Positions 402 through 54,137 of a stretch of DNA of 64,000 nucleotides are shown here, one piece after another. Origin of the DNA: an uncultured Actinomycetes bacterium (GTDB taxonomy: Bacteria; Actinomycetota; Actinomycetes; S36-B12; UBA10799); assembly GCA_946803585.1 (NCBI GenBank), contig CAMPEQ010000007.1, positions 30,451 to 94,450 of the forward strand, in the 5' to 3' direction. The translations under genes and the position numbers were made by a program. Each line of letters begins with the position of its first letter. Positions within the stretch are counted from its first letter, which is position 1. The notes beneath the pieces were generated by a model. It made no database searches. It was not told the DNA's origin and saw only the letters and a program-made list of their open reading frames with translations.

Positions 402-1391
402 ATGGCAGCGAGTGACGACAATGTCGGCCAACGTCGCATTCTCATCGTTCCCCATAGCGGACGTGCTGATGCGAACGCAGTCACAGCCACGGCCGTCGAT
501 GGGCTGCGCGCGGCCGGTATCGACGTCTGCCTCCTGGCCGAGGATGCTCAGAAGCTTGGCCGCACAGATGTCACAGTCGTTCAGACCCGAGATGCCGCGC
601 TTGGTTGCGAACTCGTGATGGTCTTCGGTGGGGACGGGACGATCCTGCGGGCTGCCTATCTGGCTAGTGCCTACGATGTTCCACTTCTCGGTGTAAATCT
701 AGGCCACATGGGCTTTCTTGCTGAGTCCGAACCAGATGGGCTCAGCGATGTTCTCGCAGCAGCGATTGACCGTGATTACCAAGTCGAATCACGAATGGCG
801 CTTGAGCTGAGTGTGTTGACGCCTCAGGGAGATCGGAGCCTGGGCTGGGCGCTCAACGATGTCACATTAGAGAAGACCGAACGCGGCAGAATGGTGGAGT
901 TGGTACTGGCGATCGACAACGAGCCGTTGTCTTCCTGGGCTGCGGACGGAGTGGTCTGTGCGACTCCGACGGGCTCCACGGCGTATGCCTGGTCAGCTGG
1001 CGGCCCCGTCGTGTGGCCGGAGGTTGAGGCCCTCGTTGTTGTGCCCATTAGCGCTCACGCCTTGTTCAGCCGCCCGCTCGTGGTTAGTCCAAAGAGCGAG
1101 ATTGATATCGAGGTATTGGCTCAGTCCTCGCCAGCCTTGGCGTGGTGCGATGGGTCGCGCCAGATAGAGGTGCCACCGGGGTCTCGATTGGAAGTCAGAC
1201 GAAGTAAGGCTTCTGTGAAACTAGCGCGTCTTCACGACAGCAGGTTCGCTCGTCGACTCGTCGCCAAGTTCAACTTGCCAGTGGAAGGCTGGCGCGGCCG
1301 TGACGACTTTCGCGCTGGTTCGGTGATTGACGAGCCCGCCGACGCCGAGCCTGCCGGTCTCGGTCGAGACGCAGAGGATTCCGCACAATGA
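402..1391 (+). CDS. nadK: NAD kinase
   Basis: 329 aa with the VFGGDGTILRAA motif and the ATPTGSTAYAWSAGGP motif. ATGA overlap with the next gene. Confidence 0.9.
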   Translation: MAASDDNVGQRRILIVPHSGRADANAVTATAVDGLRAAGIDVCLLAEDAQKLGRTDVTVVQTRDAALGCELVMVFGGDGTILRAAYLASAYDVPLLGVNLGHMGFLAESEPDGLSDVLAAAIDRDYQVESRMALELSVLTPQGDRSLGWALNDVTLEKTERGRMVELVLAIDNEPLSSWAADGVVCATPTGSTAYAWSAGGPVVWPEVEALVVVPISAHALFSRPLVVSPKSEIDIEVLAQSSPALAWCDGSRQIEVPPGSRLEVRRSKASVKLARLHDSRFARRLVAKFNLPVEGWRGRDDFRAGSVIDEPADAEPAGLGRDAEDSAQ

Positions 1392-3148
1392 TCGAGTTCT
1401 TGCGACTTCGTCACTTAGGCATCATTGATGATGCGCAGATTGAACTACGCCAGGGACTAACCGTAATCACAGGTGAGACCGGCGCCGGAAAGACGATGGT
1501 CCTGTCTGCACTGAGCCTGCTTCTCGGTGGCAAGACGGTATCCGGGCTTGCTGCAGCGAAGGACACTGCGGTTCAGGGCGGGTGGCGGATCTCCGCTGAG
1601 AGTGAGCTGCTCGAGACGATGACTGAAGCCGGCATCCTGGTTGAGGATGGCGAACTGTTGGTAAATCGAACGATGCCTCACGAGGGTAGAAGTCGCTGTT
1701 CGGTAAACGGTACGGCGATCACAGCCAGCACGATGGCGGAGTGGTCACACGATCTAGTTGCGGTTCATGGTCAGGCTGAGCAGGGAATGCTGCGCCGGCC
1801 CGCTCGGCAGCGTGCCGTACTGGACCGGTTCGCGGCCGACACCATCAGCGCGGTCAAGGCCAAGTATGAGGACCTATTCGAGGTTGTTCGTCAGGTCGAT
1901 GCCGAGTACTCACAGGCGACGAACAATTACGATCAACAAAGGGCTGAGCTGGCGGTGCTGACAGAACAACTTGAGTTGATTGAGAAGGCCGCCCCTATTT
2001 CCGGTGAAGACGACCAGCTCGCCGAGGCTGCGGCACGGCTAGGAAATCTCTCGGAACTTCAAGCCGGGGCAAGCGCGGCCCTGAGTTCTATTAGCGGCGA
2101 TGACACAGGGGCTAGCGCGAGCGGCGGAGCAGTCGAGGAGGTACATCAGGCCCGACAGTCAATCGAGTCTCTGGCGGGGCTCGATCCTGAACTCGAGGCG
2201 ATCGCTAGTCAGATTCGGGAAGCCTCCGTCCTACTGAATGAGGTGGGCGTCGATCTCTCGCGGTACCTCGCTGACCTCGATGCCCAACCGGGAGAACTCG
2301 AGAGCATCCAAAGTCGGCGAGCGCAGTTGGCATCGCTGACTCGCCAGTTTGGTCCGAGCGTCGACGACGTCTTGGCATGGTCGCAGCGGGCTGCGATCAG
2401 AGTTGACGAGTTGACTCGCTCTAGCGACCTGACCGCGTTGGCATCGCGCCGCGAGGAACTCAGAGCGCAGCTAGGGGAGCTTGCCGCGGAGCTGTCTTCC
2501 CGCAGAGCCGATGCCGCGACCCGTTTTTGTCAGATGGTGACGACGGAGCTCCAGGGTCTTGCGATGCCACATGCGGTCCTACAGATCGAGATCCGGCATC
2601 GAGCGCCGAGTACATCCGACGACGGTCTGTCGGTACCGGGAATCGAGGGCACGGTGGCCTTTGGCATCTCGGGAATCGACGAGGTTGAGTTCATGCTTAA
2701 GGCTCACGCGAGTGCCGATCCCGCCCCGGTCTCACAAGCCGCATCCGGTGGGGAGCTATCGCGCATCATGTTGGCGCTCGAAGTCGTCTTGGCGGATAGC
2801 GCGAGCGCGCCGACGTTTGTCTTCGACGAGGTTGACGCCGGGGTAGGCGGCAAGGCAGCCGTCGAGATCGGTCGTCGACTAGCGAGGCTGAGCCGCAGCG
2901 CACAGATCCTCGTTGTCACTCACCTGCCGCAGGTTGCCGCGTTCGCGGACAACCACCTGGTGGTGTCTAAACAGCAAGACGGCCACGTCACCTCTTCCGG
3001 GGTCGAGGATCTCGATGAGGAATCCCGAGTACGGGAGCTCGCTCGCATGTTGGCTGGCCAAGAACAGTCTGAACATGCCGCGGCACACGCGCATGAGTTG
3101 CTTGACCTCGCCGCTCATGAAAGGGCGCGACACGCGCAGTCCAAGTGA
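1388..3148 (+). CDS. recN: DNA repair protein RecN
   Basis: 586 aa. Walker A GETGAGKT, long coiled-coil middle, signature ASGGELSRIMLAL, Walker B FVFDEVDAGVGG. Confidence 0.95.
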   Translation: MIEFLRLRHLGIIDDAQIELRQGLTVITGETGAGKTMVLSALSLLLGGKTVSGLAAAKDTAVQGGWRISAESELLETMTEAGILVEDGELLVNRTMPHEGRSRCSVNGTAITASTMAEWSHDLVAVHGQAEQGMLRRPARQRAVLDRFAADTISAVKAKYEDLFEVVRQVDAEYSQATNNYDQQRAELAVLTEQLELIEKAAPISGEDDQLAEAAARLGNLSELQAGASAALSSISGDDTGASASGGAVEEVHQARQSIESLAGLDPELEAIASQIREASVLLNEVGVDLSRYLADLDAQPGELESIQSRRAQLASLTRQFGPSVDDVLAWSQRAAIRVDELTRSSDLTALASRREELRAQLGELAAELSSRRADAATRFCQMVTTELQGLAMPHAVLQIEIRHRAPSTSDDGLSVPGIEGTVAFGISGIDEVEFMLKAHASADPAPVSQAASGGELSRIMLALEVVLADSASAPTFVFDEVDAGVGGKAAVEIGRRLARLSRSAQILVVTHLPQVAAFADNHLVVSKQQDGHVTSSGVEDLDEESRVRELARMLAGQEQSEHAAAHAHELLDLAAHERARHAQSK

Positions 3149-5557
<2,409 letters not shown>

Positions 5558-5577
<20 letters not shown>

Positions 5578-6577
5578 CCAGACCTCAGCTGGCAGCACCT
5601 CTGCCGAAGCTGAGTCGACCGAACCGACACTACTCACGGCCCAGATCGACTCGTACTTAAGCCACATTGCGGTGGAACGGGGTCTATCGGCAAATACCGT
5701 GGGCGCGTACCGGCGTGATCTACAGCGCTACGAGGCTTTTTGTCGCCGGGTCGGCGTTACCGATGCAGTCGAGATCGATCGACCTCTTGTTGCAGACTTC
5801 GCAACGTCGTTGGTACGCCCAAACTCCGACTCCCGAACCGCTGGACAGAATGGGCCGACAGTCCTCGCAGCAACCTCGGCTAGCCGGATCGTTAGTGCCG
5901 TCCGGGGTTTTCACCACTTCATGCTCGTCGAGAACGTCACGTCGGGAGATCCAGCGCACGAGGTCAAACCGCACGTCCCGGTCAGGCGATTACCAAAGGC
6001 ACTCAGCGTTGACGAGGTGTTAGCCATGTTGGCGGTGCCTTCGGCGGAGACAGCGGTTGGCCGCCGAGATCGGGCACTGCTGGAGTTCCTCTACGCCACC
6101 GGCGCCAGAATCAGCGAGGCTCTCGCTCTCGACGTCGACGATCTTGATCGTCAGGTTGGGATGGTCGTGGTTCGGGGTAAAGGAGGTAAACAGCGCTTGG
6201 TTCCCGTGGGTAAGTACGCACTGGCGGCAATCGAGGCATACCTCGTCCAGTCTCGACCGGAACTACTTGCTGCCGCAAAGAGCGGATCTGCTACCCCGGC
6301 ACTGTTCTTGAATCAGCGTGGTCGTCGGCTCTCGCGGCAGAGCGCGTGGCTGATCATCAAGTCGACTGCTGAGGTGGCCGACATATCTGCTGCCGTCTCG
6401 CCACACGCACTCCGGCACTCGTTTGCGACTCACCTGCTCGACGGCGGGGCGGACGTTCGCGTCGTGCAGGAACTTCTCGGCCACGCATCGGTTGCGACCA
6501 CGCAGATCTACACGATGGTGACGGTTGATCGCCTCCGAGAGGTATATGTCACCGCTCACCCGCGTGCCCTGTCCTGA
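5558..6577 (+). CDS. xerD: Tyrosine recombinase XerD
   Basis: N-terminal SAM-like domain and a catalytic domain with ATGARISEAL, HALRHSFATHLL and LLGHASVATTQIYT. I placed the start at ATG 5558; the ORF-track start 5501 would overlap the Nudix gene by 77 nt. Confidence 0.9.
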
Positions 6578-6607
6578 ATAGTGGCGATCTCCGCTTAACG
6601 TAGCTTC

Positions 6608-7525
6608 GTGAGCACGGAAGCCGACGTTATCGATCTAACCGATACTGATCTAGCGGATACGGCTGCCCTCGAAGCCCCTATTGATGCAGAAGCGATTACT
6701 GCCGAGCCGAGTGGTGGATTCGAAGTCCATCTCGAAGAGTTCGCAGGTCCCTTCGATGTGTTGCTCGGCCTCATCGCCAAGCACAAGCTTGAGGTCACCG
6801 AGCTCGCCCTGAGTCAGGTAACCGACGATTTCTGCGCCTACATTCGCGAGCAGGATGCTAACTGGGACTTGGCCGAGGCAACATCGTTCCTCGTTGTCGC
6901 TGCGACCCTGCTCGACCTCAAGGCAGCCAGACTGCTGCCTAGCGGAGAGGTCGACGACGAGGAAGACCTCGCATTGCTGGAAGCGCGGGATCTGCTGTTC
7001 GCTCGACTCCTGCAGTACCGGGCGTTCAAGGAGATGGCCGCAGTGTTTGGCCGACGAATTAGCGAGAACACCGGTCGTGTTCCGCGAACGATCGGGCTCG
7101 ATCCACAGTTTGCCAACTTGCTACCAGAGGTCGTCATCTCGATCAGTCCTGATCGGCTCGCTGAGCTGGCTTCGGCGGCGCTGGCCCCACCGGCTGATCC
7201 CACCGTCTCAATCGATCACATCCACGCGCCCGCGATCAGCGTCGCAGAGCAGACTGTTCTGGTGGCAGCTCGATTGGAGCGCGACGGTACCGTCACATTC
7301 CGCGGGCTCGTCAGCGATGTATCAGAAGTCGCCGTCATCGTCGCTCGATTCCTCAGTCTGTTGGAACTGTTCCGGCAAGGCCGAATCGCCCTCGATCAAG
7401 CTGGCGCACTCGGGGACCTACACATCCGCTGGACGGGGCAGCCCGAGGACTCGACCGTCAGCGACACAGCAAGCGAATTCGATGAAGACGACCGGTCAAC
7501 CGAGGAGACCCCCGCTGATGTCTGA
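6608..7525 (+). CDS. scpA: Segregation and condensation protein A (kleisin)
   Basis: 305 aa with FEVHLEEFAGPFDVLLGLIAKHKLEVTELALSQVTDDF, typical of ScpA. Adjacent to scpB. Confidence 0.9.
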   Translation: MSTEADVIDLTDTDLADTAALEAPIDAEAITAEPSGGFEVHLEEFAGPFDVLLGLIAKHKLEVTELALSQVTDDFCAYIREQDANWDLAEATSFLVVAATLLDLKAARLLPSGEVDDEEDLALLEARDLLFARLLQYRAFKEMAAVFGRRISENTGRVPRTIGLDPQFANLLPEVVISISPDRLAELASAALAPPADPTVSIDHIHAPAISVAEQTVLVAARLERDGTVTFRGLVSDVSEVAVIVARFLSLLELFRQGRIALDQAGALGDLHIRWTGQPEDSTVSDTASEFDEDDRSTEETPADV

Positions 7526-8351
7526 GCAATCCGTGCCGTTTGAATCAGCAGCGGCCCCAGAGGTAACGACAGATCCAGAAGGATCACCTGAGGTAGTTCT
7601 CGATGCCGGCGCCGCCAACGCCGATACCGCCACCCCCGACGCCGACGCCGACGCGAGTGTGCTGGTCGTGGATGTAGCTGAAGCCTCCGAAGTTGTCGAC
7701 GTGACTGAAGGTCGGCCGCAGACACCCGACTCTTTGGGCGAGCCCGACGACGAGACAGACGTCGGTGAGGTGGCAGCCGACGCCGACAACGACGCGCTCC
7801 CTCGACCACCGCTGGCGATGGCGTTGGAAGCACTACTCATGGTGACCGAGGAACCGATCTCCACACTTGAACTTGCCACGATCGTCGAAGAGCCCCCTGA
7901 CGATGTCGAGGACGTCCTGCAGGAGTTGGCCGCGGGATACCTGGAGCAGGGTCGCGGATTTGAATTGCGCCGACTCGGCGCTGGCTGGCGCTACTACTCG
8001 GCGGCTGCGTGCGCCGACGTGGTTCGGAAGTTCGCAACTGATGGACGGACTTCGAAGCTGAGCCAGGCTGCGCTCGAGACCATGGCCGTTGTTGCCTACA
8101 AGCAGCCCGTCAGTAGGGCACGTATCGGAGCGATCCGTGGGGTGAATGTCGATGGTGTGATGCGCACATTGTTGACTCGAGGTCTGGTGGCCGAGGCCGA
8201 GGTCGATGCGCAATCTGGTGCGGTGCTCTACGGGACCACTGAGTTCTTCTTAGAGCGGATGGGGTTGACCTCCCTCGAGGATCTGCCACCGATCGCTGAC
8301 CACCTACCCGACATGTCTGTCCTTGATGAATTCATCGAACCCCTCGCCTAG
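7518..8351 (+). CDS. scpB: Segregation and condensation protein B with acidic N-terminal extension
   Basis: The C-terminal ~180 aa carry ScpB winged-helix repeats (ALEALLMVTEEPIS, LSQAALETMAVVAYKQPVSRARIGAIRGVNVDGVMRTLLTRGLV). ATG 7518 overlaps the scpA stop by 8 nt. The 6855 start in the ORF track is an out-of-frame run through scpA. Confidence 0.9.
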   Translation: MSEQSVPFESAAAPEVTTDPEGSPEVVLDAGAANADTATPDADADASVLVVDVAEASEVVDVTEGRPQTPDSLGEPDDETDVGEVAADADNDALPRPPLAMALEALLMVTEEPISTLELATIVEEPPDDVEDVLQELAAGYLEQGRGFELRRLGAGWRYYSAAACADVVRKFATDGRTSKLSQAALETMAVVAYKQPVSRARIGAIRGVNVDGVMRTLLTRGLVAEAEVDAQSGAVLYGTTEFFLERMGLTSLEDLPPIADHLPDMSVLDEFIEPLA

Positions 8352-9108
8352 CGAGGAGCCAACCGGAATTCGGTTGCAGAAGGTTCTCGCCACGGCAGGT
8401 TTTGGAAGTCGCCGCAAGTGTGAGGAGCTCATCGAGAATGGTCGGGTCAGCGTTGCAGGGGTAACAGTCGACACTCAGGGCAAGCGGGTGGATCCAATGA
8501 CGGATGTCATCCGGGTCGATGGGAAGCGGATCGCCGCGCCGACGGGCACCGTCGTGATCGCAATGAATAAGCCGCGGGGAGTCCTCACCGCGATGTCCGA
8601 TGATCGTGACCGCCGCTGCGTGGGCGATTTGCTGCGCGAATCCGCTGTGGCGAGTTTGGGAACTGGCCTCTTTCACGTTGGCCGCCTCGATTCTGATACT
8701 GACGGTCTGTTGCTACTCACCAACGATGGTGACCTTGGACATCTGCTGACTCACCCCTCGTTTGGGGTACACAAGACTTACGTCGCCACCGTATCCGGCG
8801 AGATGCGCACGGCTGATGTCACGCGCATCGGCAAGGGCGTCTTGGTCGACGATCGAGTCGTCGATGTGACGAAGGCAAGGTTGCGGGGGAGTCGCTCGGG
8901 GGAGTCACTCATCGAGTTAACGATTCACGAGGGCCGCAAGCACATCGTCCGGCGGCTATTGGCTAACTCAGGATTTCCAGTGCTGACGCTGACGCGGACG
9001 AAGTTTGGCCCGATCGACGTCGCGGGGCTAGGGATAGGCGAGCTGCGAGTTCTTAACGACGCGGAGATCAGTTCGCTGTTCGATTCCGTCGAGACGCAGA
9101 CCCCCTGA
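8323..9108 (+). CDS. rluB: Pseudouridine synthase, RsuA/RluB family
   Basis: S4 domain (IRLQKVLATAGFGSRRKCEELI) followed by the catalytic motif HVGRLDSDTDGLLLLTNDG. Confidence 0.9.
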   Translation: MMNSSNPSPSEEPTGIRLQKVLATAGFGSRRKCEELIENGRVSVAGVTVDTQGKRVDPMTDVIRVDGKRIAAPTGTVVIAMNKPRGVLTAMSDDRDRRCVGDLLRESAVASLGTGLFHVGRLDSDTDGLLLLTNDGDLGHLLTHPSFGVHKTYVATVSGEMRTADVTRIGKGVLVDDRVVDVTKARLRGSRSGESLIELTIHEGRKHIVRRLLANSGFPVLTLTRTKFGPIDVAGLGIGELRVLNDAEISSLFDSVETQTP

Positions 9109-9230
9109 CCCTGTCTGCGGGTTGAACAACGCGCAAATACCCAGATCTCCTGACCCGCAGATGAGTACTCGTGACACTATTGGCCATTGTCGGCGCGAGC
9201 GATGCGCTGACGGGTGAGGAGGAGAGAACT

Positions 9231-9596
9231 GTGCCGATGCGGGCGATCAGGGGAGCAACCTGCCTTACTGCGGATGAGCAATCCGAGATGACGGAGTCAG
9301 TCGCCGAGATGCTTAGCGAGATTCTCGTACGCAACGGCCTGGCGGAGGAAGACATCGTCAGTGTGCTGTTCACCTCCACCCCAGACCTGGTGTGCGGTTT
9401 TCCCGCTTCTGCGGCTCGAACGATCGGCTTTCGCGATATCCCACTGATCTGCGCACAAGAGATCGACGTTCCCGGAGCGCTACCTCGGGTAGTTCGAGCA
9501 ATGGTCCACGCCGAGACAGATCGACCGCGCGCTGAGATCCAACACGTATTCCTGCGCGGCGCTCAAGTTCTGCGGGAAGATCTTAATCGTGAATGA
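9231..9596 (+). CDS. aroH: Chorismate mutase, AroH class
   Basis: MRAIRGATCLT...VSVLFTSTPDL...RVVRAMVH...HVFLRGA is collinear with B. subtilis-type AroH. GAGGAGGAG lies 6 nt before GTG 9231. ATG 9237 is an alternative start. Confidence 0.85.
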   Translation: MPMRAIRGATCLTADEQSEMTESVAEMLSEILVRNGLAEEDIVSVLFTSTPDLVCGFPASAARTIGFRDIPLICAQEIDVPGALPRVVRAMVHAETDRPRAEIQHVFLRGAQVLREDLNRE

Positions 9597-10710
9597 GCCC
9601 GCGGTGAGCGATCGCGAAGACCGTCAGGTCCTCGTTGTTGGGACGGGCCTGATTGGAACATCCATTGGTCTAGCGCTGAGTGCTGCCGGCTCTCAGGTCT
9701 GGCTTTCCGACCGCGATCCAAAGGCCTGCAAGGTAGCCAGCGAACGCGGTGCCGGTGACCCGCTTGCTGGCGACGCAAAACCGTCGCTGGTTGTTATTGC
9801 GGTGCCACCGCGGTCAGTCCCAGTTGTTGCCGCCGAGTACCTCACACTCTTTCCCGAGGCCACTGTCACCGATGCAGCGAGCGTCAAGACCATGCCCCTG
9901 ACACGGCTCGCAGAGATCGCGCCGAATCAACTCGATCGGTTCGTCGGTGGGCACCCGATGGCTGGGCGTGAGGTCGCTGGCCCACAGGCAGGTCGCTCTG
10001 ATCTATTCGAGGACAGGCTGTGGGTGATCACCCCAAGCGAGTCCAATGAGCCCGCAACGGTGGACGACGTTCGGTGGCTAGCGCGCACATGCGGGTCCCT
10101 CGTTGTCGAGCTGACTCCAGTCGAACATGATCGCGCGGTCGCACTGACATCACACGTTCCCCAGTTGCTGGCCTCCGTACTGGCAGCCCAACTTACTGAC
10201 GCCGATTCAGGTGATGTCGCGGTATCGGGACAAGGATTGCGCGACGTCACGCGTCTGGCTGACTCCGTGCCGGAGTTGTGGGCAGAAATTCTGGCGAGTA
10301 ATGCCCCGGACGTCCTGGCGGTCCTGCGGCGGGTTACTGCCGAACTCCAGCAGGTCGCCGAATCGTTGGAACGAGTTGCCCAAGCCGACTACAACCGCGA
10401 ACTGCCCGCTGACTTTGCACCAGTTCGGGAGGTACTTGAACGTGGCAATCAGGGCCGAAATGCACTGCCGGATAAGCACGGCGGGGCCGCGCATGACTAC
10501 GACGTCATCCCGGTTGTGGTTGACGATAAGCCGGGGGAGTTGGCACGCCTCTTTGCTGCCGCGGGAGAGGCCGACGTCAACCTCGAGGATGTTCGTATCG
10601 AGCACACAGTTGGCCGGTTACGGGCCATCATTGAACTCGATGTCGATCCGACGGCGAGCCCACGGCTGCGCAAGTTGCTTCAAGAGTCCGGCTGGCAGAT
10701 TCGCGGTTAG
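9589..10710 (+). CDS. tyrA: Prephenate dehydrogenase
   Basis: Rossmann motif VVGTGLIGTSIGLAL, catalytic region GGHPMAG, C-terminal ACT-like domain. Overlaps the aroH end. Confidence 0.9.
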   Translation: MNEPAVSDREDRQVLVVGTGLIGTSIGLALSAAGSQVWLSDRDPKACKVASERGAGDPLAGDAKPSLVVIAVPPRSVPVVAAEYLTLFPEATVTDAASVKTMPLTRLAEIAPNQLDRFVGGHPMAGREVAGPQAGRSDLFEDRLWVITPSESNEPATVDDVRWLARTCGSLVVELTPVEHDRAVALTSHVPQLLASVLAAQLTDADSGDVAVSGQGLRDVTRLADSVPELWAEILASNAPDVLAVLRRVTAELQQVAESLERVAQADYNRELPADFAPVREVLERGNQGRNALPDKHGGAAHDYDVIPVVVDDKPGELARLFAAAGEADVNLEDVRIEHTVGRLRAIIELDVDPTASPRLRKLLQESGWQIRG

Positions 10711-10766
10711 CCAGCGCGAGTGCCTCAGACCCTCACCTGCCAACCACGACCGTTAGGCTGACCCTC

Positions 10767-11477
10767 ATGTCTGAGGAACTAAAGCGGCGCCCTGCCTTTG
10801 TTGTTGCTGTTGACGGACCCTCAGGCTCCGGTAAGTCCAGCGTGTCTCGCGGGATTGCCACTATGTTCGGTTTCCGGTACCTCGACACCGGCGCGATGTA
10901 TCGCGCGGTTGCCTGGTGGCTGCTGCGCAACGATGTTGATGTCAACGACGCTCACGCTGTGGTTAGCCGCCTACCAGAGATTGAGATCGAGAATGGTACC
11001 GACCCGCTGCGGCCATTTATCGCCGTGAACGGAACGGATGTCTCTCGGGAGATCCGCGAGCAGTTCGTCACGAGTGCGGTCAGTGCGGTCAGTGCGGTTC
11101 CCGAAGTCCGAGCTGCGATGGTCCAGGCGCAGCGGGCTGAGGTGATTGCCGCCCGCGACGACCAAGCAGGAATCGTTGTCGAAGGCCGAGACATTGGGAC
11201 AAGTGTCTTGCCCGACGCGGATCTGAAGATCTTTTTGACGGCCGACAATGCCGCACGTGCCGCCCGTCGAGCGGCCCAGGACAACGATGAGGGCCGACAT
11301 GCGGAAGTAGCTCAAACGGCCGCCGACCTCGCGGCTCGAGATGCAGCTGACTCCTCCCGAACGGCCTCACCACTCGTGCAGGCACATGACGCAATAGAGA
11401 TTGATGCCACGGCGCTAGGTTTCGATGAGGTCGTTGCGGAAGTTGAGCGTCTGGTTCGAGATGGGCTGGGCCAATGA
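10767..11477 (+). CDS. cmk: Cytidylate kinase
   Basis: P-loop AVDGPSGSGKSSVSR and YLDTGAMYRA. Confidence 0.95.
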   Translation: MSEELKRRPAFVVAVDGPSGSGKSSVSRGIATMFGFRYLDTGAMYRAVAWWLLRNDVDVNDAHAVVSRLPEIEIENGTDPLRPFIAVNGTDVSREIREQFVTSAVSAVSAVPEVRAAMVQAQRAEVIAARDDQAGIVVEGRDIGTSVLPDADLKIFLTADNAARAARRAAQDNDEGRHAEVAQTAADLAARDAADSSRTASPLVQAHDAIEIDATALGFDEVVAEVERLVRDGLGQ

Positions 11478-12187
11478 CAACGACCACAGCCTTGGCCCTG
11501 CGGGTTCCCTCGGCTAGGGGCGCGGCGAATGGCCGCAATATTGGGCGGTTGCTGTTTCGAGGCCTGTATCGGCTCGATGTTCGCGGGGCTGAGCATGTTC
11601 CGCCACACGGTCGAGTGATCGTGGCGTGTAACCACATTGGTCTGCTCGACGGTGGTCTGCTGTTTAGCGCAGCGCCTCGGCCGTTGAACATCGTGGCAAA
11701 GTCCGAACTGTTCCAACCGCCACTCGATCGCCTTCTGCATAGTTCGGGCCAGATCCCGGTTGAGTACGAGGCGCCTGATCGCGCCGCAGTTCGCTCCGCA
11801 CTGGGGGTCCTCGAACGCGGTGGTGGCCTCGGGATCTTTCCTGAGGCGCATCGAGGGATTGGCGACTTTGGTCGGGCCCGGAACGGAATCGCCTACCTGC
11901 ACAGTCGAACAAATGCGCCAATAGTGCCCGCAGCAATGTTTGGCACACGCGAAACGGGAATGGGCAAGAACGATTTGCCCAAACTGCGCTCTCAGCTGAC
12001 GGTGGTCTTTGGTGAGCCGTTCTCTGTTGCGCCATACGGCGATATCGATCGACGATCGACACTGGCCGCTATGGGGGAATCAATCCGGCAAAAGCTAGCC
12101 GACCATTTGCAATACGCACTGGACCTCACCGGTGAGCAACTTCCAACAGACGACGTCTCAATCGGGGCAAAAGGAGTAACTCCATGA
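11474..12187 (+). CDS. 1-acyl-sn-glycerol-3-phosphate acyltransferase-like
   Basis: HX4D motif NHIGLLDG and FPEAHRG motif. ATGA overlaps with both neighbours. Confidence 0.85.
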
Positions 12188-13653
12188 GTTCCGAGGATTT
12201 CGTCGAGGACGAAGAGTCAGTTGCGACCTTTGATGTCGATGGAGATCAGGATGATCTCGCTGCGGCAGAGGCTGCAGCCCTCGCCGAGTTCGGTGACGAG
12301 GATGTTGTCGAGGATCTTGCGGTCGTGCCCGAGGAGATGCTTCCGGTCGCGGCAATCGTGGGCCGTCCAAACGTCGGCAAGTCAACCTTGGTCAATCGAA
12401 TCCTTGGCCGACGCGCTGCCGTCGTTGAAGATATTCCTGGCGTCACGCGCGATCGTGTTCGCTACGAGGCGGAGTGGGCCGGAACCAAGTTCTGGTTGGT
12501 CGATACCGGCGGGTGGGACCTGCGCAGTCAGGGCATGGCCTCACAGGTCAGCGAGCAGGCACGACGGGCCGCAATCGACGCCGATGTTGTGGTTCTCGTC
12601 GTCGACGCAACCGTTGGCATTACCGACGGAGATGCCGAAGCCGTCAAAATGTTACGCAAGAGCGGCACCCCGGTGCTCCTTGTCGCGAACAAGGTTGACT
12701 CCGCGCTGCTGGAGAGCGAAGCGGCAGCGCTTTGGTCCCTCGGCGCCGGCGAGCCGATATGCGTGTCCGCTCTTCACGGTCGAGGAAGCGGCGACCTACT
12801 CGAAGCACTGGTCAATACCTTCCCTGAAGAAGGCTCCGGGAAGGCAAGCGAAGAAGGTCCTCCCCGTGTTGCCTTACTCGGACGACCAAACGTCGGCAAG
12901 TCGAGTCTGTTGAACAAGCTGGCCGGCTCCCAGCGCTCAGTCGTTGATTCCGTGGCCGGAACCACCGTGGACCCGGTCGATGAGCTTGTCGAAATTGCTG
13001 GCCAAACCTGGCGCTTCGTGGACACGGCAGGGATCCGGCGCCGGGTTAAGACCGCAAGCGGCCCGGAGTGGTTTGCCAGCCTGCGCACCCAGACGGCGCT
13101 AGAACGTTCCGAAGTGTGCCTGGTGTTGTTCGATGCGAGCGAAGAGCTCAGCGAGCAAGACGTGCGCATTGTGTCCAAAGTGGTGGACTCCGGTCGGGCT
13201 CTAGTGTTGGTCATGAACAAGTGGGACCTCGTTGATGAGGACCGGCGGTACATGCTCGATCGGGAATACGACCGTGATCTACACCATGTGGACTGGGCTC
13301 CGCGAGTGAATATCTCGGCGAATACTGGTCGGCATCTGGACCGTCTTGCGGTGGCACTTGATGCCGCGCTCGATGGCTGGCAGACGCGAGTCTCAACCGG
13401 TCGTCTCAACCAGTTCCTTAAAGAGATCGTCGCGGCACATCCTCATCCGATCCGTGGTGGCAAGCAGCCGCGGATTCTTTTTGGAACTCAAGCCAGCGTC
13501 GCGCCGCCTACTTTTGTTCTCTTTACGACGGGATTTCTCGAGGCAAACTACCGTCGCTTCATCGAGCGACGCCTGCGTGAGGAGTTTGGATTCGAGGGCA
13601 GTCCGGTTCGGGTAGACATGCGAATCCGAGCCAAGCGCAAACGTCGAAAGTAG
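12184..13653 (+). CDS. der: Ribosome-associated GTPase Der (EngA)
   Basis: Two GTPase domains ([17 protein letters not shown] and [17 protein letters not shown]) plus a KH-like C-terminus. Acidic N-terminal extension of ~55 aa. Confidence 0.95.
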
Positions 13654-48812: not shown

Positions 48813-49496
48813 CTAGCAGCAAGCGTCGGAGCAGGATGACTCTGCCGAATTGTCCACTGTTATGGGGCCGCAGCAGTTCTTCCCGCGCCATGCATCAAGA
48901 CCCTCCTTCGCAGCGACGGCAGCGATGATCAGGGCCGCGATGGGATCGGCCCACCACCAGCCGAGCCAACCATTGAGCACCAATCCAAGGAGTAGCACCG
49001 CGGACAGGTAGGTGCAGAGCAGGGTTTGGGTGGAGTCCGCCACCACAGTCGCTGAACCAAGCGCGCGCCCCGTTCGGCGCTGAGCAAGGGATAGGAGGGG
49101 CATGATCGCCAGAGATGCGATAGCTAATCCGATTCCTACCAGTGATTGCTCGGGTCGATGCTGTTGGAACAGCGCCAACACTGCATCCACAGCGACATAG
49201 GCGGCTAGAGCAAGGAAGGAAAGCGCAATCATGCGCAAGGCCAGCTTCTCACGTGACTCGGGTACTCGGTGACGGAACTGCCACAAGATGATCAGTCCGC
49301 TAGCGACCTCAACAATGGAATCTAGCCCGAAGCCGATCAGTGCGCCGGAGCCCGCGACCGTGCCCGCCGCAATGGCGATCCCTGCCTCGACGATGTTGTA
49401 TGAGACGCTGGCGCCAGCGAGAAGTTGCGCACGCCGCCCGAGTTTGACTCGATCTTCAGTCGGAGACAACTGCCGATCATCCGTTGAGGTGCTCAC
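48813..49496 (-). CDS. Cation diffusion facilitator family metal efflux protein with Cys-rich C-terminus
   Basis: Six-TM CDF core (SVSYNIVEAGIAIAAG..., FGLDSIVEV). The tail is GKNCCGP...SSCSDACC. GTGA overlap with the ArsR gene. Confidence 0.85.
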   Translation of the reverse strand: MSTSTDDRQLSPTEDRVKLGRRAQLLAGASVSYNIVEAGIAIAAGTVAGSGALIGFGLDSIVEVASGLIILWQFRHRVPESREKLALRMIALSFLALAAYVAVDAVLALFQQHRPEQSLVGIGLAIASLAIMPLLSLAQRRTGRALGSATVVADSTQTLLCTYLSAVLLLGLVLNGWLGWWWADPIAALIIAAVAAKEGLDAWRGKNCCGPITVDNSAESSCSDACC

Positions 49497-49867
49497 AGTG
49501 CTTGCTCTCCATAGATGGGGCAGAGCGACACCGCATTGCCGGTTGCTCCTAGTAGCGTTTCGGCCGCTTGAAGTAGATCGATCAGTTCCGGCCGCGCCAG
49601 CGAGTACACCGACGCCCTACCTTGTGCGCGCACGCTGACTAGGCCGCAATCGCGCAAGCATGCCAGGTGCGCTGACACCGTAGATTGAGCCAGACCAAGA
49701 TGCGTGGTCAGCTCCACTACTTTGTGATCGCCGCCTGCCAGGTGGCGGACGATCCTTAGCCTGGTGGGGTCACCCAGACTACGGAAGAGTGCACCAGCGG
49801 CTGATACATCGTCGAAGGTTTGTTGGTCTTTGAAGTCCGACCTCGTACCCGTCTCATTCATCGCCAT
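49493..49867 (-). CDS. ArsR/SmtB-family metalloregulator (CmtR-like cysteine pattern)
   Basis: HTH region LGDPTRLRIVRHL...LAQSTVSAHLACLRDCGLV. Cys residues in the CLRDC motif plus a C-terminal LCPIYG. Confidence 0.9.
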   Translation of the reverse strand: MAMNETGTRSDFKDQQTFDDVSAAGALFRSLGDPTRLRIVRHLAGGDHKVVELTTHLGLAQSTVSAHLACLRDCGLVSVRAQGRASVYSLARPELIDLLQAAETLLGATGNAVSLCPIYGEQAL

Positions 49868-50199: not shown

Positions 50200-50898
50200 A
50201 TGATCAGCTTCAGATGCCTGAGGTCACTACGGTCGACACTGATGAAGCCACAAACCGCCGCGGTTGCCCTCGTCCCACTGGTCACGCTCTGCGTTTCGCT
50301 TGCGCCAGCAGCGGGCGCGGCCTCGGCGGCAGACGGTGCGACGGCGGTGGTTGGGCAGTGCCCGTCGAGTGTGTTTGTGATCGGTGACTCGCTGACGGAT
50401 GCTTCGCGTGGGGGAGCGGGCAAGTACGTTCCCCGGGTGTTTTCTCGGATGGGGATCCACGCCAGTGTGTATGGCCGAAATGGTCTCTCCACTCGGGGTG
50501 CGCTGAATGAGAGGTTCCGGGCGGGGTTCGGCTCGAAGCAGGCAAAAGCAGCGCCGGTGTGGATTGTTGCGCTGGGAACTAACGACCAAGCCCGCTACGG
50601 TTTCGGCACCAATGTTCGTGCGGTGATGCGCCTGGCGAACAAGCTGGACAAGCAGGTGTGGTGGGTGAACACCTCTCGGCCGCGGGGCTGGCAGGAGGGG
50701 CCGGGCGGGCCGGTCAATCGGATCTTGCGTAAGGAATCGAAGCGATACACAAACCTGCGGATCATCAACTACCGCAAACTCGTCAAACAACAACCACGCC
50801 TACTCGCCGGTGATCGCGTCCATATGACGACCCGGGGTTCGAAGTGGCGCGCCCGACTCTACGCTTCACCATTTCACGGATGTGTCCCCACGAGTTAG
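50200..50898 (+). CDS. Secreted SGNH/GDSL-family hydrolase
   Basis: Signal peptide followed by block I VFVIGDSLTD. ALGTND and a late D..H (GDRVHMT). The start is ATG 50200 or 50242. The Pro-rich N-terminal part of the ORF-track model is unlikely to be coding. Confidence 0.75.
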   Translation: MISFRCLRSLRSTLMKPQTAAVALVPLVTLCVSLAPAAGAASAADGATAVVGQCPSSVFVIGDSLTDASRGGAGKYVPRVFSRMGIHASVYGRNGLSTRGALNERFRAGFGSKQAKAAPVWIVALGTNDQARYGFGTNVRAVMRLANKLDKQVWWVNTSRPRGWQEGPGGPVNRILRKESKRYTNLRIINYRKLVKQQPRLLAGDRVHMTTRGSKWRARLYASPFHGCVPTS

Positions 50899-50990
50899 CG
50901 TCATCCGCAGAGTCCGATCCGAAATGCGCAGCGCTCCAGACACGACCGTAGGAGCCACAGGTGGGTCCGGATAGCGCACTAATCGAATCG

Positions 50991-51054
50991 ATTGCATGAG
51001 ATGCGATATCAACCTTCAAGTTGACATGATATATCTTATCGGTGCTTTTGTACG
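50991..51054 (+). repeat. Copy 1 of a ~62-bp palindrome-rich element (upstream of phd/relE)
   Basis: ATTGCATgagATGCGATATCA-7nt-AGTTGACATGATATATCTTATCGGTGCTTTTGTACG. Roughly three quarters of positions match copy 2 by hand alignment. Confidence 0.8.
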
Positions 51055-51103
51055 TCACCGTTTGATATGTACGTTCTCGCACATTGTTGCTACCCTGGCA
51101 ACT

Positions 51104-51364
51104 ATGTCCGAGATCAGCGTGACCGAAGCGCGCACCAAACTGGCCGACGTCGTCGACGACGCCCGCGTCAGTCACACACCTGTCTATCTGACCAGGCGAG
51201 GGAAACGAATCGCCGCCGTCGTCGATGCCGATGACCTTGACCAGCTACTCAGAGACGCCGAGGATGCGGCCGATATTGCGGCAGCGGCACAGGCGCGCGA
51301 CGGCCTCGCGGGCGGCGATGTCTCCATCCCGTGGGACGAGGTCAAAGCCGATCTCGGAGTGTAA
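51104..51364 (+). CDS. Type II antitoxin, Phd/YefM family
   Basis: 86 aa. The N-terminus ISVTEARTKLADVVDDARVSHTPVYLTRRGKRIAAVV is the Phd/YefM fold signature. Confidence 0.85.
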   Translation: MSEISVTEARTKLADVVDDARVSHTPVYLTRRGKRIAAVVDADDLDQLLRDAEDAADIAAAAQARDGLAGGDVSIPWDEVKADLGV

Positions 51365-51368
51365 GGCT

Positions 51369-51632
51369 GTGCGCTACACCGTTGAGTTGACACCATCGGC
51401 AGCCCGCCGTCTCAAGAAGTTGGACCCTGCCGCCCGTGCACGGATCCGCGGCACTATCGAACTTCTGCACGACAATCCGCGCCCGCCAGCAGCAACCCAA
51501 CTCGTCGGTGGTGGCGGTGAGTGGCGGGTCCGGACCGGCGACTACCGCGTCATATACGACATCGACGACCACATCGTCCGGATCCTCGTTGTGGCCATCG
51601 GCCACCGAAAAGACATCTACCGACGACGCTAG
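51369..51632 (+). CDS. Type II toxin, RelE/ParE family
   Basis: GTG start 4 nt after the antitoxin stop. 87 aa with ...WRVRTGDYRVIYDIDDHIVRILVVAIGHRKDIY, a typical RelE/ParE C-terminus. Confidence 0.85.
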   Translation: MRYTVELTPSAARRLKKLDPAARARIRGTIELLHDNPRPPAATQLVGGGGEWRVRTGDYRVIYDIDDHIVRILVVAIGHRKDIYRRR

Positions 51633-51634
51633 CC

Positions 51635-51829
51635 GACACGATCGTGTCCGACATGCTGGCCTGGCAGAACCGGCCCCTGGACGCGGCGTATCCGGTCATC
51701 CTCATCGACGCGATCGTCATCAAAGTTCGGGAAGGCCAAGTAGCTAATCGCCCCGTCTATGTGGCCCTGGGAATCACCATGGACGGCCAACGAGACGTCC
51801 TGGGCATGTGGATGGGGCCATCGGGAGAG
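51635..51829 (+). pseudogene. Internal fragment of an IS256-family (mutator-type) transposase
   Basis: TIVSDMLAWQNRPLDAAYPVILIDAIVIKVREGQVANRPVYVALGITMDGQRDVLGMWMGPSGE matches the central WQxRPL...DA...KVR...G...DG.RDVLG.W block. Only ~65 codons are present, with no start and both ends missing. Confidence 0.75.
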
Positions 51830-51831
51830 AT

Positions 51832-51893
51832 ATTGCATCAGATGCAATATCAGGTCGTTTAGTTGACATAATGTACATTATCGGCACTTTACG
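51832..51893 (+). repeat. Copy 2 of the ~62-bp palindrome-rich element
   Basis: ATTGCATcagATGCAAT is a perfect 7-3-7 dyad. It is followed by AGTTGACATAATGTACATTATCGGCACTTTACG, which contains the perfect 14-bp palindrome ATAATGTACATTAT (51868-51881). Confidence 0.8.
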
Positions 51894-52172
51894 AATGGAC
51901 CACTGCATGCCCGCAATCAGGATGAGCGGTGTCTGAGGCACGTAGCTATTGAACGTCGATCGACGATATTGTTGGGGCGCTCTGCGTTGGTGGCCTTGAG
52001 GTTGCGGCCACTCTTGGCGTACCTCTGATCATGCTGTCGTTGGCGATTCCGCTGCAACTGGTGCTCCTGTATGCCCTCGCGCATAGTTCTAAATCGAAGA
52101 CAGGACTGCGCGAATTTTCGTCGAAAGATCTGGGTTCGGCTTAGGTTCGCCTCGATCCAACGTAGTCTCGAA

Positions 52173-54137
52173 ATGATGTCTGCTCTTCGAAGTCACAAGT
52201 CTCTGCGCAATTTTGTCACCAGTTCACTCGTTCTAGGAGTGATCGCGACGACGATTGTTGACTCCCCCGCCAGTGCCATCGAACCTCAAATTGGTTTACC
52301 GACGGCCGCACTCTCGTCGCCAATTACAGCGGATGACCCGCTCTACGCGGAACCGGATCCCGGTGTTCTGCCGGAATTCAGTGAACCAGGAATTCCACAA
52401 AGTAGGGCTCAATCGTCAAGGGCCGCCAGCCAGTGCCAGTACGGCACATGGGCAGCAAACGACAAGGACGAGGCAGACGCCAAGAGGATGATGGCGGGTT
52501 GGGCACGCGTCGGACACTATGGGACTTTTCGGCTGAAGAAGAACCCCAACTGGCGCCACACCAACGCGCTCGATTACAGCGGGAACGGCCACATGCACTC
52601 CTTGGATTGGGCACTTCCCCTGCTGCGCCACGGCTTGCGCGCGGGAAAGCAAAAGATGGTCAAGCGCTTCTACAAAATCGTTCTGGACTGGATCAAGGAC
52701 AATCCGCCGAATAACCCGCGGCAGTGGAAGGCATACGGCCAGATCGAGTCCGGTTTCCGCATGATCACGCTGACATGTGCGCTAGCCGGGCCTGTTCCAA
52801 CTAAGAAGAAACGTAAGAAGATCGTCAAGTCCATGAAGCTCCAGGCAACCGTGGCACAGAAGCGATGGGTGAACTACAACAATGTGTCGTTCCTGCAAGC
52901 TGCTGGAATCTTTGCCGTCGGATGTGCCCTTGGTCAGAAGAAGACGCTGAAAAAGGGTAAGAAGTTGATGGGTAAGAACTCGAAGAAGATGATTGCCAAA
53001 GATGGGTCTGTTCGAGAGGGCTCGTTGCTCTACGCCCGCAACACCTATCTGTGGACCGGCCAAGAGATTGCCCGAATGCGCGCGTGCGGGAAGGCGCCTG
53101 GTCCTAAGCTGCGTCGGTCCGAACGGATAGCCGACTTCCTCGCTCAGGGAGCGAGACCTGATCGACGCTACGAAGCCCTCGGTGATGGTGGAACCAAGAA
53201 GGTTAAGAAAGCCGAAACCCCGGCGGGTTCGCTACTGCGGTACGTGGCAACGAAGGGCGCTGACGGTTCCCGACCGCAGAGTTTGTACCGGACATACTCG
53301 TCAGGGTTCATCTTTGGCCACTCAGGTTTTGGCCAAGAGCGCAAGTACGCCAAGGAGACCTACTACTCCGTTCGGACCGGACCTGGCCCGGCGTCGGAGT
53401 ACCACGCACATTACGACGCGGCGGCACTGACGGTCGCATCGCGAGGCGACCAGCTGCTGTTCGATACCGGGCCGTACCGTTACATCAAGAACTCGAAGGC
53501 GACCTACATTCGCAGTCGGAGCGCTCACAACAACGTCAATATCGACGGCCTATCCGCTGGTGGGCCACGTCCAACAGTTACTGCCGCCGCATCATCGGTG
53601 GCCGGTGACTTCACCTCAATCGTCGACGGCGCGTACGCGAACACACACCTCCAGCGAACAATTTGGTACGACCGGATCGGCGACTTCTTTATCGTCATGG
53701 ACGACGTCGGGCCAGCTAGCCCCGCAACGTTCTACGCCAACTGGAATCTTGGTCGATATCGGACAGTGGTGATCGACGGCCAGAGCGCAGCAACCGAGGG
53801 CACGGGAGCGAACGTTTCGATTATCAACGTAGCGAGCCCAGTCACGCTATCGAGTGCGGCGGGCAGCAAAGACCCTTGGCGCGGATGGAACTCCACGGAG
53901 TACGGCGAGTTGGTGGCTTCACCGACATTGCGAGCGGCCGCAGCCAGTCCCACAACCCGGCTCGTCACCGTGATCGTTCCCCGATCGGCCGGGGTAGCTG
54001 CCGACACGGTCAGCGCGACCGGTGATCTGACCGCGACGGGCGCGGTGGTGACGACGGTCGTGAATGGCGTTGAGTACAGCCGTTCGATCTCCACGACAGG
54101 TGTGACATCGATTGATGTAGAGCCTGAACTACCCTAG
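52173..54137 (+). CDS. Secreted heparinase II/III-like (alginate-lyase-fold) protein
   Basis: Signal peptide (VLGVIATTIVDSPASA). N-terminal alpha/alpha-toroid-like region (HSLDWALPLL...) and C-terminal Hepar_II_III block (YHAHYDAAALTVASRGDQLLFDTGPYRY...RSAHNNVNIDG). I placed the start at ATG 52173. Confidence 0.8.
   Translation: MMSALRSHKSLRNFVTSSLVLGVIATTIVDSPASAIEPQIGLPTAALSSPITADDPLYAEPDPGVLPEFSEPGIPQSRAQSSRAASQCQYGTWAANDKDEADAKRMMAGWARVGHYGTFRLKKNPNWRHTNALDYSGNGHMHSLDWALPLLRHGLRAGKQKMVKRFYKIVLDWIKDNPPNNPRQWKAYGQIESGFRMITLTCALAGPVPTKKKRKKIVKSMKLQATVAQKRWVNYNNVSFLQAAGIFAVGCALGQKKTLKKGKKLMGKNSKKMIAKDGSVREGSLLYARNTYLWTGQEIARMRACGKAPGPKLRRSERIADFLAQGARPDRRYEALGDGGTKKVKKAETPAGSLLRYVATKGADGSRPQSLYRTYSSGFIFGHSGFGQERKYAKETYYSVRTGPGPASEYHAHYDAAALTVASRGDQLLFDTGPYRYIKNSKATYIRSRSAHNNVNIDGLSAGGPRPTVTAAASSVAGDFTSIVDGAYANTHLQRTIWYDRIGDFFIVMDDVGPASPATFYANWNLGRYRTVVIDGQSAATEGTGANVSIINVASPVTLSSAAGSKDPWRGWNSTEYGELVASPTLRAAAASPTTRLVTVIVPRSAGVAADTVSATGDLTATGAVVTTVVNGVEYSRSISTTGVTSIDVEPELP

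Follow-up and report, generated by a model that had tools for sequence, protein, structure and literature searches.

What are two direct copies of a palindrome-rich element doing on either side of a toxin-antitoxin (TA) cassette? The question is raised by a stretch of 64,000 nucleotides from an uncultured actinomycete (contig CAMPEQ010000007.1; hereafter the window, meaning the whole stretch), in which a phd/parE cassette and a fragment of an insertion sequence (IS) of the IS256 family lie between copy 1 (50991-51054) and copy 2 (51832-51893) of the element. The first-pass annotation of this DNA took copy 1 for the autoregulated TA promoter/operator and offered, among other possibilities, that copy 2 is an orphan or decoy operator left by a deleted second cassette. 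Judged by their sequences, both repeats are instead predicted Xer recombination (dif-type) sites and not TA operators. We are fairly confident in reading copy 2 as the chromosome's own dif, located at the replication terminus, and copy 1 as a decayed site of the dif-like kind that belongs to a portable phd/parE unit.

Two dif-type sites and the replication terminus

Direct reading of the sequence placed both copies in the same orientation. MAFFT and a repeat finder aligned 50991-51048 with 51832-51890 as a block of 21 nt (19/21 identical) and a block of 30 nt (24/30), separated by a 1-nt indel and spaced 841 and 842 between the copies. Global alignment of the 61-nt modules gave 44/61 identical positions (about 72-78% overall), in keeping with the match at three quarters of positions described at first. 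No third copy was found in the 64 kb: degenerate patterns for either half match only copies 1 and 2, where 100 shuffles predict none. The perfect 7-3-7 dyad described for copy 2 is real and larger, a 10-3-10 dyad, and its 14-bp palindrome, ATAATGTACATTAT, is perfect. The surroundings are also as first described: copy 1 lies 50-113 nt upstream of the phd ATG at 51104, the IS256 homology (PF00872) stops at codon GE, 51829, directly before copy 2, and a heparinase II/III-like open reading frame (ORF) begins near 52173.

The second half of each repeat is built like dif. On the + strand, copy 2 consists of the XerD arm AGTTGACATAA, the centre TGTACA and the XerC arm TTATCGGCACT, which in conventional orientation is the 28-bp, 11-6-11 site AGTGCCGATAA-TGTACA-TTATGTCAACT (first arm also written GTGCCGATAA), with two 11-bp arms whose inner parts form inverted repeats around a 6-bp centre and a match to the consensus of the phylum. 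The corresponding parts of copy 1 are AGTTGACATGA, TATATC and TTATCGGTGCT, with the reverse complement AGCACCGATAA-GATATA-TCATGTCAACT. What had been described as AGTTGACAT, a 14-bp palindrome and TTATCGG are the XerD arm, the inner arms with the centre, and the XerC arm, respectively. The predicted dif of Frankia alni (CACGCCGATAATGCACATTATGTCAAGT), which was the seed for dif predictions in all 66 actinobacterial genomes (Kono et al., PMC3025954), is matched by copy 2 at 23/28 positions and by copy 1 at 19/28. Primers for a mycobacterial dif-excision cassette carry the dif halves GCCGATAAGCGACA and ACTTGACATAATGTC (PMC5364183), and the core of copy 2 contains these same halves of the M. tuberculosis dif. 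Cassettes flanked by dif do undergo resolution in mycobacteria.

Scanning metagenomes with a looser composite pattern returned 107 stretches, about 86 of which (70 unique) form one family on high-GC contigs with the consensus t-GCATCnGATGCaATa-(11 nt)-aCTTGACATAA-(6 nt)-TTATCGGCg; left of the dyad, sequence is not conserved across the family. A profile built from about 70 independent relatives found only 51824-51894 (E=1e-16, 55.5 bits) and 50992-51056 (E=1e-7, 26.7 bits) in the window, and these scores make copy 2 a canonical and copy 1 a diverged member. With a weight matrix made from 68 unique, independent family cores (maximum 46.8 bits), copy 2 scores 43.3 bits and copy 1 scores 31.3 bits. 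The matrix scan gave no other site of at least 8 bits in the 64 kb and none of at least 18 bits in 0.37 Mb of shuffled sequence, leaving one high-scoring dif and one weaker site in the window.

We read copy 2 as the chromosomal dif because the window is chromosomal and carries xerD, because a polar motif switches strand there, because a relative has the identical 28 bp, and because its score approaches the matrix maximum. A plasmid origin of the window was rejected, as megablast of 16 kb gave no plasmid match and the genes are housekeeping ones (recN, pyrG, xerD, scpA, der, gcvP and lnt). The xerD gene, whose product is the recombinase expected at the dif core, is placed in a recN-pyrG-xerD-scpA cluster. 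We also observed that this conserved actinobacterial cluster, recN-pyrG-(ORF)-xerD-scpA-...-der at 1388-13653, is only about 45 kb from dif.

Strand-skewed oligomers were sought without bias in the left 51.8 kb and then compared with the right 12 kb. Two oligomers proved the most skewed: GGGGGAG has a +:- ratio of 16:0 to the left of the site and 0:5 to its right, and GGGGAG 33:2 and 2:7. The final + copy of GGGGGAG, at 50410, and the first - copy, at 52262, bracket both repeats. A switch of polar motifs at dif is thus seen here as at a terminus, and the flip is the behaviour expected for FtsK-orienting or architecture-imparting motifs near dif. For this lineage, GGGGGAG/GGGGAG is a candidate FtsK-orienting motif resembling FtsK-orienting polar sequences or architecture-imparting sequences.

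We regard as decisive what is seen in two relatives (L155 and L156), which were located via the heparinase-like protein (78% identical). In both, the 28-bp core of copy 2 recurs unchanged (28/28; 30/30 nt) some 250 nt before the heparinase-like gene, and this orthologous site lacks a TA cassette, an upstream dyad and any second site. The polarity of GGGGGAG/GGGGAG flips at the L155 site as it does in the window. Synteny extends over the right flank of dif (heparinase-like and GDPD genes) and not over the left, where L155 has rhodopsin and FG-GAP genes.

As a chromosomal dif, copy 2 is a site of an already known kind. We infer that XerC and XerD would bind its two 11-bp arms and that at septation FtsK-activated XerCD would exchange strands across TGTACA, so that chromosome dimers would be resolved. 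It shares with the described chromosomal dif of actinobacteria the 11-6-11 architecture, the arms ..CCGATAA and TTATGTCAAnT, the position at a polarity switch, a nearby xerD and the 28/28 identity in a relative. It differs from them in the weaker second site, a direct repeat 841 bp off, and in a conserved palindrome 14 bp outside the XerD arm, which is absent from described dif.

The phd/parE cassette and its dif-like site

A Phd protein search combined with inspection of the context recovered this phd/parE cassette from five additional neighbourhoods that are unrelated to one another, at 84-87% nucleotide identity (features of the window are collected in Table 1). BLASTN homology of the cassette begins at 51030-51037, the junction of centre and XerC arm, and ends at 51633-51636, 1-4 nt past the parE stop; in other replicons, a canonical dif adjoins the cassette directly, with its XerC arm towards it. 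At locus L157, where Phd belongs to the same 90% cluster as that of the window and the context is different, the cassette is preceded by GATTGCATCAGATACAATATCAACCCTTGAAATTGACATAATATATGTTATCGGCGCT, a dyad with a canonical dif of 42.6 bits and the sole such site in 16 kb. At L026, a single canonical dif of 39.0 bits lies immediately upstream of the cassette. The dyad together with AGTTGACAT adjoins the cassette in L157; L026 has a degenerate form of them, and L030 and L034 lack them.

To the left and right of its centre, and in the dyad too (GATTGCATCAGATACAATATCA in L157, homologous to the copy 1 dyad), copy 1 is like the L157 site, sharing 48 identical positions with the L157 module versus 44 with copy 2. 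Relative to L157, CATAA has become CATGA in its XerD arm and GGCG has become GGTG in its XerC arm. A dif-like site goes with this cassette in at least three unrelated contexts, and the tie between copy 1 and the TA genes noticed at first takes the form of physical co-travel, seen beside the cassette elsewhere (e.g. in L157). Because the sites of L157 and L026 adjoin the cassette and copy 1 resembles the L157 module, the series dyad, dif-like site, promoter, phd and parE is one inherited portable unit of about 645 bp. The site of this unit has decayed in the window, while the dif resident there, 841 bp off, is perfect.

Table 1. Features of the repeat region and the xerD gene, in window coordinates
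Feature	Position	Strand	Details
Copy 2 dif core	51861..51888	-	XerD arm 51861-71, centre 51872-77, XerC arm 51878-88
Copy 1 degenerate dif-like core	51019..51046	-	31.3 bits, sole other site in window
Copy 2 dyad, GATATTGCAT-CAG-ATGCAATATC	51829..51851	.	perfect 10-3-10, read directly
Copy 1 dyad (imperfect), ATTGCATGAGATGCGATATCA	50991..51011	.	13 bp outside copy 1 XerD arm
Cassette-conserved upstream region	51036..51103	+	XerC arm, then two TGTACGT repeats, then ATTGTTGCTACC
phd/yefM-family antitoxin	51104..51364	+	PF02604 E=9e-15; TIGR01552
parE/relE-superfamily toxin, GTG start	51369..51632	+	PF05016 E=1.3e-14
IS256-family transposase, internal fragment	51635..51829	+	PF00872 (Transposase_mut) E=1.4e-20, profile 145-205/379
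xerD	5501..6577	+	TIGR02225 equivalog, 333.6 bits vs cutoff 329.6; real start probably downstream of 5501

The IS256 fragment breaks off exactly at the parE stop codon to its left and at the copy 2 dyad to its right, and BLASTN matches to IS256 transposases span 51624-51819. Cassette copies elsewhere are also trailed by IS debris (L030, 6530-6730, with C-terminal fragments of the IS3 and IS256 families; L034, 5262-5450, where parE is truncated), and generally the phd/parE cassette is found in decaying mobile DNA. Database calls of the antitoxin at 50996-51364 (P0001, 112 aa; P0123, 122 aa) begin inside the dif-like site and dyad; they are probably over-extended, because the start at 51104, which gives 86 aa, agrees with the family and with the orthologues. 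Upstream of the repeats lies a GDSL lipase-like ORF, with an ArsR-family regulator and a cation-diffusion-facilitator efflux gene to its left (48813-49867, minus strand).

A conserved dyad outside the XerD arm

The part of the first half that the family conserves is a 13-bp dyad core, TGCATCnGATGCA (51834-51846 in copy 2), which is 14 bp from the XerD arm in the family and in copy 2, and 13 bp from it in copy 1. The genes beside family members are varied: a type III polyketide synthase and transporters occur among them, as do several TA-like pairs, TnsA-like genes and tyrosine recombinases. A strict dyad pattern run over genome contigs gave mostly chance matches in low-GC genomes and one informative locus, the Arthrobacter contig L007, where the entire architecture stands upstream of an Xre-RES pair. 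Viral contigs gave no match. One copy of the dyad with dif occurs per plasmid record in Gordonia, Rhodococcus, Arthrobacter, Pseudarthrobacter, Paenarthrobacter and Mycobacterium; on other plasmids, the dif core comes with another palindrome or without any. The dyad is therefore common and yet not part of dif proper, being absent at the L155 dif and replaced or missing on these other plasmids; it seems tied to mobile DNA. A literature search for the dyad sequence returned nothing relevant and no paper describing it. A terminal inverted repeat, of a recombinase-in-trio or other element, was rejected as an identity because no locus has an inverted second copy.

Among the explanations that compete with ours, the one that survives best is that the dyad and dif-like core form the att or resolution site of an Xer-like tyrosine recombinase system encoded by an element (an integrase, a Cro/C1 helix-turn-helix (HTH) protein and a recombinase of about 500 aa) and are not a substrate of the host XerCD, so that the window would hold two relic att sites. 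At about 10 loci, a set of an Xer-like integrase, a Cro/C1 HTH_26 protein and a second recombinase of about 500 aa starts about 210-235 nt from the dyad side, and on plasmid pCZY such a set flanks the module on either side. CATC-N-GATG dyads, which are of the same type, adjoin the integrase start codon in L055, L041, L007 and L148, and the orthologous chromosomal dif of L155 lacks the dyad. The 28-bp core, however, is the canonical host dif, kept without an integrase in both L155 and the window; neither window copy has such an integrase beside it, and most family members have none in their sequenced flank. We therefore regard this explanation as rather unlikely for the module as a whole; it may well account for the dyad, but not for the core.

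The three-gene set itself, found at L041, L055, L107, L007 (6990-8000), L148 (843-3766 and 4240-7181), L150 and L152, comprises an integrase of about 365 aa, an HTH_26 protein of about 110 aa and a protein of about 490-510 aa with CxxC motifs and a weak Phage_integrase match, and may represent a family of dif-targeting integrative elements. TTGCAT..ATGCAA dyads likewise stand beside the integrase start codon. As far as sequence can tell, this suggests that a DNA-binding protein encoded by the element would recognise the dyad.

We put forward, tentatively and as no more than one possibility, that TGCATCnGATGCA placed 14 bp outside the XerD arm makes up an 'extended dif' that plasmids and integrative elements of actinobacteria would use. 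Beside XerD it would be bound by a dimeric factor, for instance a Cro/C1-type HTH protein encoded by the element, which would license or block Xer recombination independently of FtsK, and small TA cassettes like the phd/parE unit of the window would ride on the site and be locked beside the chromosomal dif by addiction. Such a factor would be a functional analogue of XafT, a Xer activator encoded by a phage, or of the accessory proteins of cer and psi, in a new architecture. The module is like cer with ArgR and PepA, psi with ArcA and PepA, and XafT in combining a core Xer site with a palindrome at fixed spacing that resembles a protein-binding site, one per plasmid. In cer and psi, the accessory sequences span about 180 bp next to the XerC arm; here, in contrast, there is a single 13-bp palindrome on the XerD side, and the partner protein is only putative. 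This conserved XerD-side palindrome is the most novel and testable element of the locus.

Other mobile DNA was seen near the family. Tn7-like ends (3-4 repeats of GGACCACCTTTAGTGAGACA-type sites) and TnsA-like genes lie within about 25 nt of the dyad in L039 (3200-3900), L143, L085, L118 and L153 (Gordonia p174), which suggests that the dif region serves a Tn7-like family as attachment site. The motif (C/T)GCAGGTCAG(G/A)G is repeated to the left and right of the dyad and dif module in the same strand orientation at many loci, for example 15-25 nt right of the XerC arm in L058, L083 and L100 and 60-90 nt left of the dyad in L041, L042, L099 and L148, and may be the end or att site of elements inserting there. 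One metagenome-assembled genome of the Verrucomicrobiae has three 12-3-12 palindromes, GGATATTGCATGAGATGCAATATCC (L001 2101-2120, L013 748-767, L014 7154-7173), which have similar flanks and are dyad-like, with no adjacent dif core. In L017, on a contig with 73% GC, ATTGCATCAGATGCCATATC (7737-7770, minus strand) lies between a TTGACA and the start codon (ATG) of the VapB-like antitoxin gene of a vapBC pair; it either matches by chance or is a true TA operator that resembles the dyad.

Control of the cassette and origin of the tandem sites

That the element is an autoregulated promoter-operator of phd/parE, with Phd or Phd-ParE bound at its dyads and copy 2 as an orphan or decoy, is very unlikely. 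It has in its favour the position of copy 1 close upstream of phd, the dyad and dif-like module beside the cassette in L157 (degenerate in L026), and the centre of copy 2, TGTACA, which is the core motif of E. coli YefM operators. The palindromes of a type II TA operator would be specific to the cognate cassette; here they recur, in some 70 family members, without phd and upstream of unrelated genes or none (type III polyketide synthase, TnsA, Xre-RES, transporters), while the L030 and L034 cassettes retain the promoter-proximal region and yet lack the dyad and XerD arm. The central 6 bp are freely variable across the family. Overall, the family occurs in roughly 70 contexts and on many actinobacterial plasmids, mostly without phd/parE. 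Copy 2 is kept 28/28 in a relative with no TA cassette there and sits at the replichore switch, which speaks against an orphaned operator; the first-pass annotation had allowed that the element might turn out to be a dispersed repeat unrelated to TA loci, and for copy 2 this is essentially what we found.

Nor did a sigma-70 scan find a promoter in either copy, and the sequence conserved with the cassette starts only at TTATCGG. Upstream of all cassettes it runs from TTATCGG-YGCTTT through two TACGT repeats and ATTRTTGCTACC to the ATG. The TACGT-containing direct repeats of the window (51050-56 and 51069-75, 19 bp apart) are downstream of copy 1 and absent from copy 2. These repeats would be the best candidate for the Phd operator, and control of phd/parE is most likely exerted there and not at the dyads, which makes 51036-51103 the probable promoter/Phd operator region.

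Several other identities of the element were tried and rejected. With TTGACA as the -35 of a sigma-70 promoter the scan was empty, and no conserved -10 occurs 16-19 nt downstream anywhere in the family. The minus-strand sequence GCCGATAA equals the -10 consensus of a sigma-28/WhiG promoter but has no TAAA 15 nt upstream, and we take the match as a coincidence because this 8-mer is the XerC arm. The end of a coding sequence ('..LT*', with TTGACATAA last) is contradicted by in-frame stops in many family members, and an Rfam search at E<=1 over 50500-52500 found no known RNA.

The pair of sites with what lies between them is a structure like an integrative mobile element exploiting Xer (IMEX) or a dif module, in an actinobacterial chromosome. 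Sites resembling dif border IMEXs, and where the XerD arms are altered, this is thought to keep FtsK from driving excision (PMC9226527). As in CTXphi, TLCphi, VGJphi and the gonococcal genetic island, foreign DNA without a recombinase of its own lies at a chromosomal dif, with a canonical dif on one side and a deviant, directly oriented dif-like site on the other, whose XerD arm, being deviant, may stand in the way of excision. Both sites (51019-51046 and 51861-51888) lie on the same strand, the site in L155 is empty, and only phd, parE and the inactive IS256 fragment lie between the sites. The structure differs from IMEXs in that the unit is only 841 bp long and encodes just a TA pair and IS scrap, in that the deviant site is no recognisable attL hybrid, and in that a circular or replicative form is not known here. 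Among the dif modules of Acinetobacter, the 'add' module is a TA module of 768 bp (PMC6449649). The window unit shares with these pdif modules the small size, the TA pair, the bounding by XerC/XerD sites and the occurrence in several contexts. Theirs are carried by Rep_3 plasmids and bounded by inversely oriented pdif sites, whereas the sites here are direct, chromosomal and actinobacterial, and the portable unit has a site at one end only.

A similar arrangement was found in L123, where a dif-like site of 32 bits, genes for a ribbon-helix-helix protein and a BrnT-like protein (a sub-threshold Pfam assignment, E=0.055), and a dyad with a dif of 36 bits follow one another, the two sites being direct and 979 bp apart. 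At 1249-2255 of this locus, the TA-like pair is on the minus strand with the toxin gene first, and the dif-like site there has no dyad.

We infer that a dif-bearing element or plasmid segment would have joined the chromosome at dif by recombination of the Xer or dif-module type, and that deletions would later have trimmed it to the remnant of dif-like site, phd/parE, IS256 scrap and dif. The third alternative of the first-pass annotation, that copy 2 is the boundary of an 841-bp unit created by recombination, pointed in the right direction, since the sites are direct site-specific recombination sites. Plausibly, the unit would be stable for three reasons: the decayed arms of copy 1 would disfavour its excision by XerCD/FtsK, as would the non-identical centres (TATATC and TGTACA), and post-segregational killing after excision of a TA circle would keep it in place.

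Some observations weigh against this account. The GC skew is +0.031 to the left of the site and drops only to about +0.016 over the 12 kb to its right, never becoming negative, so that on its own it does not mark the terminus, and xerC was not found in the 64-kb window. No cassette context shows a dif-like arm after the parE stop, and L157 and L026 have no second site within 5-8 kb. Copy 1 is not the attL/attR-type hybrid of an IMEX: it is of the cassette type on both sides of its centre, which calls either for at least two events or for a crossover at the module's outer edge. For this reason we rejected both a single-step IMEX integration, which needs a hybrid copy 1 with a chromosomal left half, and a crossover within the dyad.

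That a local rearrangement independent of Xer (IS256-mediated insertion or deletion, or an illegitimate duplication of dif) put the cassette and its dif-like relic beside dif by chance would fit the IS256 fragment that is truncated on both sides and fills the gap between parE and copy 2, the lack of a legible Xer crossover in a copy 1 that is cassette-type on both sides of its centre, and the IS debris around other cassette copies, but it is highly improbable, given that family sites are otherwise single-copy per locus or plasmid, that chance is unlikely to place two direct sites, 841 bp from each other, exactly at the terminus, that the architecture recurs independently in L123 with a different TA-like pair, and that copies only about 72-78% identical are not a recent duplication in situ.

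In summary, at the level of annotation, what looked like a palindrome-rich TA operator is corrected to the dif of the replication terminus, and the terminus of this chromosome is thereby located. The window and L123 provide two independent actinobacterial cases of TA pairs between direct dif-type sites, and the idea of IMEXs and dif modules thus reaches beyond Vibrio, Neisseria and Acinetobacter. This suggests that addiction modules exploit a locus that the cell cannot delete. The palindrome, widely conserved on plasmids and mobile elements at a constant distance from the XerD arm, is a testable candidate for a new accessory control element of actinobacterial Xer recombination.

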